Position numbers: made by a program
DNA from: a virus
Lineage: Duplodnaviria; Heunggongvirae; Uroviricota; Caudoviricetes
Virus record (IMG/VR): IMGVR_UViG_2534682139_000010
Length of the DNA stretch: 36,150 nucleotides
Reading direction: 5' to 3' (one strand)
Shown: positions 12,001 to 18,000 of the stretch, one piece after another
Layout: every line of letters starts with the position of its first letter
Numbering within the stretch: the stretch's first letter is position 1

Positions 12001-15000
12001 TTTGCACATGTCCGGTTCACGGACAGCCTGTTTTTATATTTTTCATATAGTTAACTTGCAGAGAAACCGGACATGGATCCCGGAAAATTTTCATAAATAG
12101 CGAAAACCCGCGAGGTCGCCGCCCCGTAACCTGTCGGATCGCCGGAAAGGACCCGCAAAATGATAATAATTATCATCTACATGTCACAACGTGCATCTAC
12201 GCCATCAAACCACGTCAAATAATTAATTATGACGCAGGTATCGTATTAATTGATCTGCATCAACTTAACGTAAAAACAACTTCAGACAATACAAATCAGC
12301 GACACTGAATACGGGGCAACCTCATGTCAACGAAGAACAGAACCCGCAGAACAACAACCCGCAACATCCGCTTTCCTAACCAAATGATTGAACAAATTAA
12401 CATCGCTCTTGATCTGAAAGGTTCAGGTAATTTTTCAGCGTGGGTTATTGAAGCCTGCAGAAGAAGATTAATTAATGAAAAATATTCTCAATTTGTACCC
12501 AACAAAGACAAACACGACCAGAGCACCTGTTCAGACAGGTTTACTTAAACGACTTATATATGACACAAAAAGCGACCACTAAAGTCGCTTTTTCTTATGG
12601 TAACAGGCAATAACGCTCTCAGATATTTTTTAGCATTTTTTTGACCGCGCGTTTCCGGACGTATTCTGTTCTCCTGTCCCTTTATATCGTCGGAATACCC
12701 GCCGCTCTTCAAATCCCATTCCCAACTCAGAATGTAGTCTGTTGACCGCTTGTTTTATTTCGGTCAGGTTCACCGGTGAAACCGGAGTCCGGCGCGCCTT
12801 ACGCAAACACTCTGCTCGTTTCTGTGCCGCCACTTTTCTTTTCTGGTCATCACTTAGCTGTACCATCACTTTTGCCCATCGTTCAGCTGCTCTCCGGTAC
12901 AGCCTTTTTTCTCCAGACATTCTGCCACGTGATCATGTAGCATAAGTGACCTCCGATTATCTACAGACTGCCATCCTGAATTTACCTTCCCTTAATGAAA
13001 TAACAATAAAAAACAAACCACGCAAAAACAATAAAATAACACACAAAAAAAACTAAATAATAAACAAAAATAATCACCTTATTTTATTATTTTTTGAGGG
13101 GGCAATTACTGAACAAAAAACGCTGACTATATACTCAAAACCAAACAACTATTCTGCCAATCAGGTATCATGGCAACACACGGAATTACCGTGTTTTTGC
13201 CTTCTCTGCCCATACAATACGGGCATATACTTCATACTCTATTGTAATATTTCTATCCATGCGCCCCACTCCATTTACCTGTAAATAATATTCAAAATAT
13301 TTATCACAGAAATCGTTTTTGTCCATGAACTGAGCACACTATAAAGTCCGGAACTGACTCTTTGTTAAATTACCTTAACGTTACCAGTAACACCTTCATA
13401 ACAAAACATCACGGTATACACTGGGTACGGATATATTCCTGTGCTCCTTCCAGTTGCTTCTGCATTGCCATCAGCCGTTCTCTGAGGATGAAATAATCCC
13501 GTTCAGCGGCTTCTGCCAGTCGGGGACCGGTTGCATTATCCACGCCGGAGGTGATGGGGGCTTTACGCAAGGAGCCTGGACAGTTGGCGTTGATGCGCAG
13601 GCGCTTACGACCAGCGGCAACATCAGCACGCAGAGTTTCATTTTCAGCTCTCGCATCGGCTAATTCCCTCGAGTATCTGGCATCAAGTGCAGCGACATCA
13701 CGCTGGCGTACCTGCATATCAGTAATTGTCACGTTCGCCAGCTCCAGCTCACTGGCTTTTTTATCGCGTTGCGCTTTGTAGGTAATGGCGTTATCGCGGT
13801 AATGATTCAGCCCCAGACTAAGCACACCACAGGCTACCAGCAGGACAATAATCACCACACACAGAACACGGTTCATATCCCCCTCACCCCACCAGCCATG
13901 ACAAAGTTAAGACGCGCCAGGCAGTGGAAAAGCAAATAGCAACCAGCATTAGTGAAAATGAAATGCCGACGATTACACAGAGGATCTTCGCCAGCGTTAT
14001 GAGCTTGTCTGACATGCTTAATCCTCTTCACGATTTCAACGCAATGACCAGTTTTGCCAGCCCATACAGCATCGGAGACACAGCAATACCGACCGCCACC
14101 CACTTAATAGCAAAAGCCAGCGCTCTGCTGACGTCATCAGTTACAGGCGCTTTCAGTTCAAGGCCGTTTTTCATAGTCAATCTCAACAGAATTCGTTTAT
14201 ACTTTCCCATGTTCTCCCTTGCCTTACTCAAGGTCAGAAACACAAAACCCCGTTTGCGGCCAACAAACGGGGTTTTACTTTTATTCACTTAGTTTTTGCC
14301 AGTTCGCAGGATTTCGTGTTATCCGCCCGCGTTGGCCAACGTCATTTTTCAGCAAAATATTCTGCTTATCTGTCAATTCCCCAGCACGCCAGTGCACTTT
14401 CCTGGTCTCGCCGGGATACCTGACCGTAGCAATTATTTGAGCGGATACGGCAGTCTCTGCCACCGTCCTTAATCCACCAGCGAATCGCTTCGCAGGCACC
14501 TTTTCGATCACCTGCATTAATCCGTCTGTAAAACGTAGACGGGAAACACTTACCGGGGCCAATGTTATAAGGACAAAATGACGCGATACCCGCCTTCTGG
14601 GGTTCGGTCAGCGGTACTTTAATATTGCGCTCCACCCACTCCAGCGCCTTATCACGTTCAATGGCGTTAACCTGGTCGCACTTTTCCTTCGATAACTTCA
14701 TACCCGGGACGACAGGCTTACCATCCACTCGGGTGGCACCGCGGCAGATGGTCCAGATCCCCGCACCATCACGGTATGCCGTGGTGTGGTTACCTTCTTT
14801 TTCGTCAAGAAACTGGTCGAGGATTTCAGGCGCAGACGTCCCTGCACCAATCAGCGCCAGAACGGCAGCCGACAGGCCGTATCTGATTTTTGCGTTCATG
14901 GATATTTATCAGGATTTATCGGTTCCGGACCCCTGGATATGTTAAGTCTTCAGCCCGCCGGTGGTGGGCACTGGCGTAAACCCAACAATGTGAGATGGCT

Positions 15001-18000
15001 GCCTCGCAAAGATAATGAACAGATATGAATGAAGAAAATACAGCGCTTTTTGACAGAATTTTCACTCTTGAGTTACAGGTCGGTTTTCTTCTCCCAAAGA
15101 TAATCAAAGCCATGGATGCACTTGGTAAGAATAACGCTGTGTCAGATTACCTGATCGCCGAAATGGAACATCTCATTAAAGAAATACCAAAGACCGATGC
15201 TCGTGATGATAAAAGATTCCTCAGGGCTGCTGAAAATGCTCTTTCAACAGTGAAGCGCAGTTCAGGCGCGCAGCTAATTCAAGAATAGTTTCTTTCATTT
15301 CATCTGCTGCAAGCACCTCATTTTTTGTTGGGGTGCTTTTTTTCAATTCAGTAACACAGCACTCCAGTTTTTCAATACGTGATTCAACATCATCTTTTTC
15401 TGACCGCAGTGTTGACGGCGGCATCTTCAGAGAACAAGTAATTCTTCCCGGTAGCTTTCCTTTGTAGGTTATCAACACATCCTGCGCCTCTAAAATTACG
15501 GGGCGATTTTCCGGCAACGGACCATCCCCTTCACATAACCCGGCAGCAACATCCATGAAAAACTGCTTCGCCTGCTTTTTCGCCTCAGCTTCGTAAAACT
15601 CCAGCGTGGCACCTTCAGTACGGTCAAGACTAATCGCCACATCTGGCAACAACAGTGACGGATACCCACCAATTTCCAGTGCCACAGTAACAGTAATCTT
15701 ATCCGGGTAATTATTTATCCCTTTAACAACCAGTTCGTATTTTTTCTTCATCGCTTTACTCTCCCCGCGCCGCCTTACGACGGTCCTCTCTGATTTTGAA
15801 ATACAGGTTAGTCAGATATGTCAGCAGCCCAAACAGCAGACTCCCCAGCACGCCTATTGCCGCCCACTGAGACGGAGAGACTTTGTCCAGCAGCTGCAGG
15901 AACCAGTAGCCCGTTCCCACCGCTGACGTGGTGTATGACACACCTGTTGTGATTTTTTCCATCTGGTACATACCCCGTCTCTCGCAATCCGGAAGCTCAC
16001 AACAACAGGAGGGGCATCAGCTCACACCGACAGCCCCTGCGCATGGTTACATCATCATTTCGCCGTCAGGCTGAGGCTCACTGCTACCGTCAGGCTGAGA
16101 CACGACGCCATCTGAAACAGCACTGTCACCCGCGCCGTCTTCAGGCTCAGGAGCAGCCGGTCCCCCCAGCAGCTCATCCAGAATGGCATCCACTTCAGCA
16201 TCAAGACGCGCCTCAAGATTCTGGCGGAGTTGCTGTTTCAGTGCGCTTCTGACTTCTTCAGAGCGCAGGACGTCCTTCACTGCTTCAGCAGTGACCAGAG
16301 ATTTTATTTCTGACATGGGATTTTCTCGTTGAAAGGTGTTGTTAAGAAAGTTGCTACGAAATGAGAGGCTCTTCGGGTTTTGTTCCGGCTGACTGGCTGG
16401 CGCTGATTTTTTCCGCCGCCGCGGCATCAATCTTTTTGCGTATATAGTTCCGGATAACCTTATACCCGCCACTTACCAGATATAACGTGCACACCACCGT
16501 GCAGAAATACAATAAAATAAGCTGTACAAATCTCATTATCCCTCCCGGTTATTGATATGGTGTTGACATCGTTAATACCTGTTGGTTAAAAAAGTGTCCT
16601 GCATGTTTTGCTTTGGATATAACGACATTTGCCGCCGGTTCTGGCTCCTTGTTTTCCCTGCCCCGGCGGCCTTTTTTTCCTGCTTACGGGTTATTCACTT
16701 CCACTGTTATACTTTCAATCAGCACCGGATATGTCGCACCGCTAGTGATATCGGTCACGCGCAATTTGTCTGCCGTAAACGTGCCGACCGGTGACTGTGA
16801 CAGCATGAACGGCGTCCCGTCCTTACCATCAATGACCGGCGTCACCTCAATACTGTTGTTACCGGCAAAACGGAAGCCCAGCGTATGCCATTCGTTATCA
16901 AATGCGCCGAATGACCCCAGCTTCGTGTTCTGACCAGCATTTCCCTTGTGGTACATCACATTAAGGTCTGTGGCATCGCTCTGTACGTAAAACGACGCCA
17001 GCAGGTTATGACCGGCATTACCTTCCAGTGTGACGCCCTGAGGCAGTGAAGAAACCGGCCAGTACAGCGCCAGTGCGTACTGATTAGCTGTCAGTGTGCC
17101 ATCAACTTTAAAACGACAACTGATAAGCCCGCCCTTCTCCAGCAGGTCTGCGCCATTACCGGCATCATGCTGCATAAACCACGAGGAACTTCCTGTCTGT
17201 TTGGTCCACCTCAGCGCCTTACCTCCTGCAGCACCTGCATCATCAACTACCAATGCACGCCCTCCTTCAGCTCCCCATCCCTGCGGATTCAGTAAACCAC
17301 CTGACTCTGTTGCACGGTAATAAAGCAGCGTTGTCACTGATTTCCCGTCCGTTGACGGTGTTGATGGTGTGTCCGGTGACGGCTTCTCATCCGGCGGCAT
17401 CACAACCTGTTCCCCACCCACCAGTTCAGCCGTCCGTCCTGCATGGAGAAGAATCGCTGAGGCAAGACGGTCAGAAATAATCCCCCTGCGTGCCCATGAG
17501 CTGAAATGGCTCGCACGGTCTGCTGACGTCCAGTTTGCCGACGTCCGGGAGGCCGCACCGTAATATCCTGATGCCGGAATATCCGGGTCTTCTTCCGGTT
17601 TGTTCGTCGGGACATTTGCTCCGTTCTCATCGGTCATGAACGGCACAAAGTGAATATTCTTTTCCGTTTTGTTTTTGTAACTGCCGTACACCGTCTGGTA
17701 AGTGGATTCGCTCTTCTGCTTCCAGAAATAAGTTGTGTCTCCACATATCCAGGGAACACCGTCAGCAGAACCACCAGCGCACTGTCCCACCATATCTGCA
17801 AGGTCCGTACGATATTGTTCCACTACTTCTGTAAAACGGGCTGTGTGATTTGCTGGCGTTCCGTCAAAGTCAAATTCCCCCTGCATCCACACCACGGCAA
17901 GCAGCACATTTTTCGGGTTCTTTGCCAGCGCGGCTTTTGTACGACCGATGAGATCCTTATACAGCGGCCTGCCCACACCCCAGCGGGTAGAACTCTCTGA

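Follow-up and report, generated by a model that had tools for sequence, protein, structure and literature searches.

What are the genes doing that lie between S, R and Rz in the lysis cassette of the prophage recorded as IMGVR_UViG_2534682139_000010, when these three genes are contiguous in phage 21? We addressed this question on the complete 36,150-nucleotide (nt) stretch of the record, hereafter the window. An earlier note, made from the sequence alone, had described a 176-amino-acid (aa) gene behind the holin, an 87-aa open reading frame (ORF) antisense to it and a 60-aa membrane protein gene between R and Rz as insertions that matched no known family, and had considered roles in lysis modulation, superinfection exclusion or anti-phage defence. 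Our analysis revealed that the extra genes are mostly ordinary and that all of them are already present in databases. The explanation that we favour, with a probability of roughly 60%, is a standard cassette of S21 pinholin, R21-like lysozyme and Rz-Rz1 with two habitual variable slots that are filled by recurrent accessory genes, YdfR, the 87-aa protein and two small membrane peptides having the roles proposed below.

The lysis genes are all encoded on the minus strand of the window (Table 1), and the set is complete, as PF04971, PF00959, PF03245 and PF06085 all find their match. The holin is named 'class II holin family protein' in the PGAP annotation. The lysozyme has a weakly hydrophobic N-terminus (segment aa 9-27), from which the character of a signal-anchor-release (SAR) endolysin is predicted. 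Directly after the class II holin and ahead of the lysozyme gene, the position at which ydfR is found, lies the gene for the 176-aa protein. Its ATG is 4 nt past the holin TAA, with GGAGAG 7 nt upstream. The protein matched Pfam PF07041 (DUF1327) over aa 1-100 with 150.4 bits (E 1.7e-44), the gathering cut-off of this family being 25 bits, and PHROG 2091 covers its full length. The statement that none of the extra genes matches a known family was thus wrong for this protein. A near-identical protein (99% identity) is labelled 'YdfR family protein' by NCBI. The 176-aa protein is a member of the YdfR/DUF1327 family at the standard position of that family, and we will refer to this form as YdfR-A. 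On the other hand, the ORF coordinates, the 4-nt spacing after the holin stop with its ribosome-binding site, the 68-nt overlap between the 87-aa gene and the 3' end of ydfR, and the location of the 60-aa gene in the gap between R and Rz (489 bp) had all been given correctly. A 43-aa ORF, a hairpin behind R and a terminator of the 87-aa gene had been overlooked.

The AlphaFold2 (AF2) model of YdfR-A shows the DUF1327 N-domain joined to a C-terminal helical hairpin by a linker of poor model quality. Its core domain (aa 1-72) is the sole part conserved across the whole family. The C-terminus, which we designate module A, ends in ..ELKKSTPTKNEVLAADEMKETILELAARLNCASLLKEHFQQP. Sequence analysis of the window protein indicated the absence of a membrane segment, and a comparison of the YdfR profile with the sequences of the PDB returned coiled-coil noise only.

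The arrangement is not the unusual one it had been taken for, as essQ-ydfR-rrrQ of the K-12 Qin prophage displays the same order and the same 4-nt spacing. Adjacency of S and ydfR was observed in 10/10 inspected loci, including those of K-12, BP-4795, phage 86, Stx2_95, 2H10 and L006-L010. In order to estimate how widespread the genes are, 5426 complete Escherichia coli genomes were searched with the DNA of the YdfR N-domain, the S21-type holin and the small ORFs. The YdfR N-domain was present at 6734 places in 3159 genomes (58%) and the holin at 13529 places in 4299, so that ydfR occurs in roughly every second S21-type cassette. What had been taken for an unfamiliar insertion is thus, in large part, a known and conserved gene at this place, found at about half of the S21-type holin loci, although its role in lysis is unproven and YdfR is not an established lysis accessory protein. 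The family shares the N-domain and differs in its C-terminal modules, with lengths of 103, 114, 161, 176, 183, 211, 246, 268, 296, 305 and 329 aa. We also noted an N-domain fused to a KilAC/ANT antirepressor domain (P0124) and another fused to the holin itself (P0087), which suggests either frequent in-frame recombination at this locus or artefacts of assembly or annotation. The expectation that the inserts are variable cargo was borne out when related cassettes were compared: the S-R slot is occupied by YdfR proteins of 103-329 aa, and the R-Rz slot by ant with a 48-aa ORF, by a 28-aa ORF or by nothing. The inserted ORFs are nevertheless genuine, with matches to Pfam or PHROG families and a ratio of nonsynonymous to synonymous substitution (dN/dS) below 1 against diverged homologs; a lack of conservation was not what we found.

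Table 1. Features in and around the lysis cassette; positions refer to the window unless another record is named (aa, amino acids; pLDDT, predicted local distance difference test).
Feature	Position	Strand	Support or remarks
PerC-family transcriptional regulator gene	12630..12920	-	
Rz, i-spanin	13409..13876	-	Pfam PF03245, E 3e-46
Rz1, o-spanin, embedded in Rz	13471..13656	-	Pfam PF06085, E 4.1e-19
43-aa single-pass membrane peptide	13884..14015	-	PHROG 4906, E 7.3e-24; stop 7 nt before Rz ATG
60-aa protein, basic N-terminal part and one C-terminal transmembrane helix	14028..14210	-	PHROG 1115, E 6.6e-42
Terminator-like hairpin	14244..14276		13-15-bp stem; 90 nt downstream of R; fold energy -21.6 kcal/mol, z = -4.65
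R, R21-like lysozyme (putative SAR endolysin)	14366..14899	-	Pfam PF00959, E 1.9e-25
Conserved leader of the 87-aa gene	14933..15024	+	alignment of 11 lineages
Leader hairpin 1	14956..14976		8 bp
Second leader stem	14990..15007		loop with invariant GAUGGCUG
87-aa gene, soluble three-helix protein, antisense to the late operon	15025..15288	+	PHROG 18136, E 3.8e-55
Module A of YdfR-A, coiled coil and C-terminal helix (..DEMKETILELAARLN..)	15221..15391	-	partner segment of the antisense gene
ydfR-family gene, 176 aa (YdfR-A form)	15221..15751	-	Pfam PF07041, PHROG 2091
Intrinsic terminator of the 87-aa gene, within ydfR codons (LKKSTPTKNEVL)	15311..15348	+	10-bp stem and T-run; fold energy -15.5 kcal/mol, z = -3.62
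YdfR core domain (aa 1-72), beta-beta-beta-alpha fold	15536..15751	-	AF2, pLDDT 70-88
S21-type class II holin (pinholin), 71 aa, Met1/Met4 dual start	15756..15971	-	Pfam PF04971, E 3.6e-33
NanS-p-like SASA esterase, DUF1378 and DUF826 genes	16047..18621	-	
RAxAFAI(K/R)xVA peptide, L006	4249..4335		
RAxAFAI(K/R)xVA peptide, L041	934..1047		
RAxAFAI(K/R)xVA peptide, L040	880..1053		
RAxAFAI(K/R)xVA peptide, L002	~4716..4859		
88-aa antisense ORF, phage 2H10 (L004)	3500..3766	-	overlaps a different YdfR tail by 53 nt
88-aa antisense ORF, L008	2979..3245	-	overlaps a different YdfR tail by 53 nt

Concerning the function of YdfR, an experimental study reports that the K-12 protein contacts the catalytic half of RNase E through residues 1-72 and that RNA co-purifies with the protein (PMC13232886). 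The core of the window protein corresponds to this fragment. We propose that YdfR-A would be a cytoplasmic late protein that acts on host RNA metabolism, and YdfR is probably not an effector of envelope lysis.

We then examined the 87-aa ORF, and found that it is a genuine, rare gene, present in 45 of the 5426 E. coli genomes. Its family comprises 30 database clusters from E. coli and Citrobacter, and two scans of species-representative genomes yielded no homolog. In codons outside the overlap, dN/dS was 0.175 against Citrobacter (dS 1.1) and 0.085 against the second E. coli clade (L006). The AF2 model is a soluble bundle of three helices. We also compared the protein with the C-terminal domain of the long YdfR proteins, of which it might have been an inverted copy, and rejected this possibility as no similarity was observed. 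An intrinsic terminator follows the gene within codons of ydfR. In other clades, its stem AAGCACC/GGTGCTT is replaced by AAGCGTC/GACGCTT, corresponding to two compensatory pairs that entail two amino-acid replacements in the ydfR frame read across them. The terminator has no T-run on the strand of the late mRNA, and should thus stop transcription of the plus strand only. Judging from this layout, the 87-aa gene appears to be a separate transcription unit on the opposite strand with a terminator of its own, which disagrees with the earlier assumption that it is co-expressed with the lysis genes.

Upstream of every gene in the 87-aa family is a conserved leader of approximately 90 nt. Its hairpin 1 occurs as two stem types across lineages, with 95% of the cells of the alignment paired and four pairs changed on both sides, and the covariation value of 0.318 was not reached by any of 500 shuffled alignments (0.17 in shuffles). 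The minimum-energy fold of the window sequence favours a competing hairpin, and the covarying stem is therefore the one taken from the alignment. No Rfam 15 covariance model matched positions 12500..17000 of the window at E <= 1. Weak -10-like hexamers (TATGTT, TAAGGT and TATCCT) are found 6 nt ahead of a conserved TCAGCCCG. The opposite strand of this leader is the 5' leader of R.

With pattern scans and a profile search, homologs of the 87-aa protein (78-101 aa, 26-90% identity) were recovered from seven lineages. In all seven, the homolog runs against the late operon and converges on a partner ORF, the 3' ends overlapping by 20-86 nt. The partner carries the C-terminal helix of the 176-aa protein in 6/7 lineages; in the other (L049), the partner (61 aa) displayed no similarity to module A. 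In Citrobacter and in IMG/VR phages, the partners are stand-alone ORFs of 51-57 aa; their homology is confined to module A, and every one of them has a GGAGG or AAGGAG ribosome-binding site of its own. In two distant lineages (L043, 144 aa; L047, 245 aa), the partner has a YdfR-like N-domain (hhalign probability 93%, E 2.9e-7) and ends in the same ..ILxWAARL helix. The genomic contexts also vary. The E. coli pair sits between holin and lysozyme, the pairs of Citrobacter (L005) and L047 upstream of a different holin, that of L044 behind the spanin genes, and that of an IMG/VR clade near HNH and terminase genes.

These results bear on whether we are looking at decay products, with the 176-aa gene a pseudogene truncated from a long YdfR (296-329 aa) and the 87-aa ORF a chance antisense frame in prophage debris. 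PGAP annotates, in NZ_CP031908, just 15416..15751 (-), the first 112 codons of ydfR, as a YdfR pseudogene that is 'incomplete, missing C-terminus'. The homology to the 329-aa Stx2_95 gene ends exactly at the stop codon of the window gene, which is probably the reason for this call, and the prophage is full of IS3-family copies and lacks structural genes. However, 176-aa forms with another allele of the N-domain (71% identity) retain both this stop codon and the antisense gene, and the same convergent pair recurs in distant lineages in other contexts. Taking into account, in addition, the dN/dS of 0.09-0.18, the terminator and the conserved leader of the 87-aa gene, and the name that NCBI gives to the 99%-identical protein, we consider decay highly improbable and regard the pseudogene call as corrected.

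We also considered whether module A could be a mere antisense shadow of the 87-aa gene. This was rejected, as the stand-alone partners have their own ribosome-binding sites, the motif is kept where the tail of the 87-aa protein varies, and it persists in a case with an overlap of only 20 nt. Within the 68-nt overlap, constraint switches from one frame to the other. At 15223-15258 conservation lies in the plus frame, the one coding for helix 3 of the 87-aa protein (proportion of nonsynonymous changes, pN, 0.11-0.24; of synonymous changes, pS, 0.53-0.60), and at 15259-15292 it lies in the minus frame with the partner motif (pN 0.20, pS 0.50-0.60), the counts being small in both segments. Due to this switch, both products appear to be selected, and a functional link seems to connect the antisense gene with the 176-aa protein's tail. 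In phage 2H10 and in L008, an unrelated 88-aa antisense ORF is found at the same place, behind the same hairpin-1 leader. A remote relationship of the 2H10 protein to the 87-aa protein was rejected (hhalign probability 0.3%), and the S-R slot may accept alternative antisense genes.

We propose that the 87-aa protein would be made from the opposite strand while late transcription is off, and would bind or neutralise the module-A helix of YdfR. Late transcription, in turn, could silence the 87-aa gene through convergent transcription and an RNA duplex at the overlap. A more far-reaching and rather unlikely extension is that YdfR-A and the convergent three-helix protein of 78-101 aa constitute an undescribed two-gene phage module that is conserved across Enterobacterales prophages. 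The late partner would contribute the RNase E-binding domain, possibly resembling a double-stranded-RNA-binding domain, and the opposite-strand partner, behind a novel leader with two hairpins and the invariant GAUGGCUG loop, would control it by binding its helix and by a 3' RNA duplex, so that the pair might act as a switch between lysogenic and lytic RNA metabolism. We found no description of the pair, of the covarying leader or of the partition of selection in the overlap in the literature searched.

Returning to the explanation that we favour, a standard cassette with two accessory slots and the roles proposed for their genes, a number of observations, including the pseudogene call described above, weigh against it. 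In the domain concerned (aa 1-74), the window protein is only 47% identical to K-12 YdfR, and binding to RNase E has been published for the K-12 homolog only (PMC13232886). When K-12 YdfR was overexpressed, the transcriptome hardly changed and growth was little affected (PMC13232886). The structure models of the 176-aa and 87-aa proteins are moderately confident (pLDDT 60 and 63, the latter that of the 87-aa protein), with fold matches that are weak or generic. A sigma-70 consensus scan upstream of 15025 detected no promoter. More than 98% of the E. coli genomes that bear ydfR lack the 87-aa partner, and the long YdfR forms retain module A although no more of the 87-aa gene than its last 21 codons and its terminator is left on the opposite strand; the pairing is therefore not obligatory. 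That the 87-aa protein contacts module A directly is something that we purely infer. Finally, the prophage is defective, and the genes of the cassette may no longer be in use here.

As for the second slot, the 60-aa protein (KD19 hydrophobicity 1.90, net charge +7) and the 43-aa peptide (KD19 hydrophobicity 2.86), each with a single transmembrane helix, have their genes in the R-Rz gap, and both genes possess a ribosome-binding site of their own. The ORFs are common in lambdoid and Stx prophages of E. coli and occur together in 1788 of the 5426 genomes, and they are under purifying selection, dN/dS against diverged homologs being 0.08-0.61 for the former and 0.15-0.50 for the latter. The profile searches that had been called for gave a divided answer: the 87-, 60- and 43-aa ORFs each fall into a PHROG family (E 4e-55, 7e-42 and 7e-24), whereas no Pfam family, including the releasin family DUF2730, matched the 60- or 43-aa proteins at E <= 0.1. 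The 43-aa ORF was present in 276 phage records, mostly of Shiga toxin (Stx) phages, where it always abuts Rz and is often unannotated. The motif RAxAFAI(K/R)xVA is common to the homologs of the 60-aa protein, which are located between the endolysin and spanin genes in GER2 and phiSTEC1575-Stx2k, in the latter after an M15 endolysin. L006 harbours a 28-aa paralog. Between the endolysin and spanin genes of varied cassettes we repeatedly saw one-helix peptides with this motif, many ending in ..IRWW, either as substitutes or as tandem paralogs, and Stx2_95 has a different small hydrophobic peptide in the R-Rz spot.

Ahead of the two genes, within the late operon, lies the terminator-like hairpin, with flanks that are T/A-rich on both strands. 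It is kept in the related prophages L002, L006 and L009, and might terminate transcription in both directions, affect RNA stability or mark the boundary of a module. A promoter scan detected none for either gene. Located behind this hairpin and with no promoter detected, the two genes should be expressed only from the Q-antiterminated late transcript. We propose that the peptides might act in the inner membrane on the release of a SAR-type endolysin, or on the behaviour of the pinholin or the spanins, and a modulation of lysis by these proteins is possible.

One may go further and view all of these genes as direct regulators of lysis, with YdfR and the 60- and 43-aa proteins tuning its timing in the manner of antiholins, releasins or spanin modulators, and the 87-aa gene serving as an antisense brake on the lysis genes. 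Three of the genes are indeed in line with S, R and Rz, lie close to their neighbours and are equipped with ribosome-binding sites. The 60-aa homologs keep their place between endolysin and spanin genes even where the endolysin is of the M15 type, the 43-aa ORF is invariably next to Rz, and in phage Mu a small membrane-tethered protein controls a SAR endolysin (PMC9239132). On the other hand, YdfR has no membrane segment, and neither the releasin DUF2730 nor any holin or antiholin family of Pfam was matched. The R-Rz slot also hosts plainly non-lysis cargo (ant), which makes position weak evidence. About half of the S21-type cassettes are devoid of ydfR, and phage 21 is not known to carry a ydfR, 60-aa or 43-aa gene; the genes are therefore dispensable for lysis. 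A direct role of the whole set in lysis control is thus doubtful.

Another possibility is that the genes are cargo for defence, anti-defence or toxin-antitoxin-like functions. The YdfR-A/87-aa pair would then be a toxin and its antidote, or a module for abortive infection or exclusion, and the small peptides would exclude superinfecting phages. Two small proteins with opposite regulation that move as a unit between phage contexts would agree with this, as would the highly polymorphic C-termini of YdfR, and morons of prophages often encode exclusion functions. However, PADLOC found no match for the 176-, 87-, 60- and 43-aa proteins or the partners, the sole match being to a 296-aa relative at chance level (E 0.018). 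Searches of Pfam and NCBIfam revealed no toxin or antitoxin domain, and the extra ORFs had no meaningful match in NCBIfam. Growth was not arrested in cells overexpressing K-12 YdfR (PMC13232886). The genes of the peptides lie behind the late-operon terminator with no promoter detected, so that lysogens, in which exclusion would have to operate, probably do not produce them. Nothing supports the anti-phage role raised in the earlier note, and we consider cargo of this kind improbable.

The cassette resides in a prophage that makes up the entire window (1..36150), a defective Qin-like lambdoid element inserted in ydfJ, the gene interrupted by Qin in K-12. Its terminase is truncated and structural genes are absent, while at least three complete IS3-family copies and further partial ones are present. 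The cargo includes the paa adhesin, an nleG7 pseudogene, hokD, dicB and a TerB pseudogene. Prophages 100% identical to the 2.8-kb lysis region were found in E. coli O103:H2, O121 and related strains. Just downstream of Rz/Rz1 is a PerC-family regulator gene, where lambda and Min27 have bor. Upstream of the holin is the set usual for Stx phages, consisting of a NanS-p-like SASA esterase, DUF1378 and DUF826; stx genes are absent alongside this set. The DUF826 gene was read as 141 aa in our ORF list and as 89 aa by PGAP.

The locus illustrates that 'orphan' genes of lysis cassettes can belong to common families that already have a name. YdfR is among the most widespread E. coli prophage genes that lack an assigned function. 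The reported link to RNase E makes a role in the late phase directly testable, and the convergent pairing, together with a covarying leader unmatched in Rfam, provides a concrete handle on what YdfR does.

Among the systems that have been described, the releasin gp25 of phage Mu (DUF2730, PMC9239132), a small membrane-anchored protein in the cassette of a SAR endolysin, serves only as a working analogy for the 60-aa protein. The transmembrane domain of gp25 is N-terminal whereas that of the 60-aa protein is C-terminal, no match to DUF2730 was obtained, and the window cassette has a pinholin of its own. The 87-aa gene resembles the lambda-type morons, such as bor and the ant gene in the R-Rz slot of Stx phages, in that a gene with its own terminator lies in or beside the lysis cassette against the direction of late transcription, and in that the cargo varies. 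In contrast to Bor, the 87-aa protein has no signal peptide, lipobox or similarity to Bor, and its gene overlaps and co-evolves with a late gene; its terminator was seen and the promoter scan was empty. The ydfR genes of Stx phages (BP-4795 ORF47, 114 aa; Stx2_95, 329 aa; 2H10 gp52, 183 aa) share the position and an N-domain of 55-95% identity but differ in their C-terminal modules. Module A is present in the Stx2_95 protein but is internal there. In 2H10 an antisense ORF overlaps the ydfR 3' end behind the same hairpin-1 leader, with a product (88 aa) unrelated in sequence, and in BP-4795 the R-Rz slot holds ant and a 48-aa homolog of the 43-aa ORF. The K-12 Qin cassette essQ-ydfR-rrrQ-rzpQ/rzoQ, with YdfR P76160 (DUF1327), differs in that its YdfR is 103 aa long with an unrelated C-terminal tail, the ydfR stop overlaps the rrrQ ATG, and module A, the antisense gene and the small ORFs between R and Rz are absent. 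It corresponds to the window in its S21-type holin, in a ydfR gene 4 nt after the holin stop that encodes an N-domain 47% identical to that of YdfR-A, in its R21-like lysozyme and Rz/Rz1, and in the insertion of the prophage in ydfJ.

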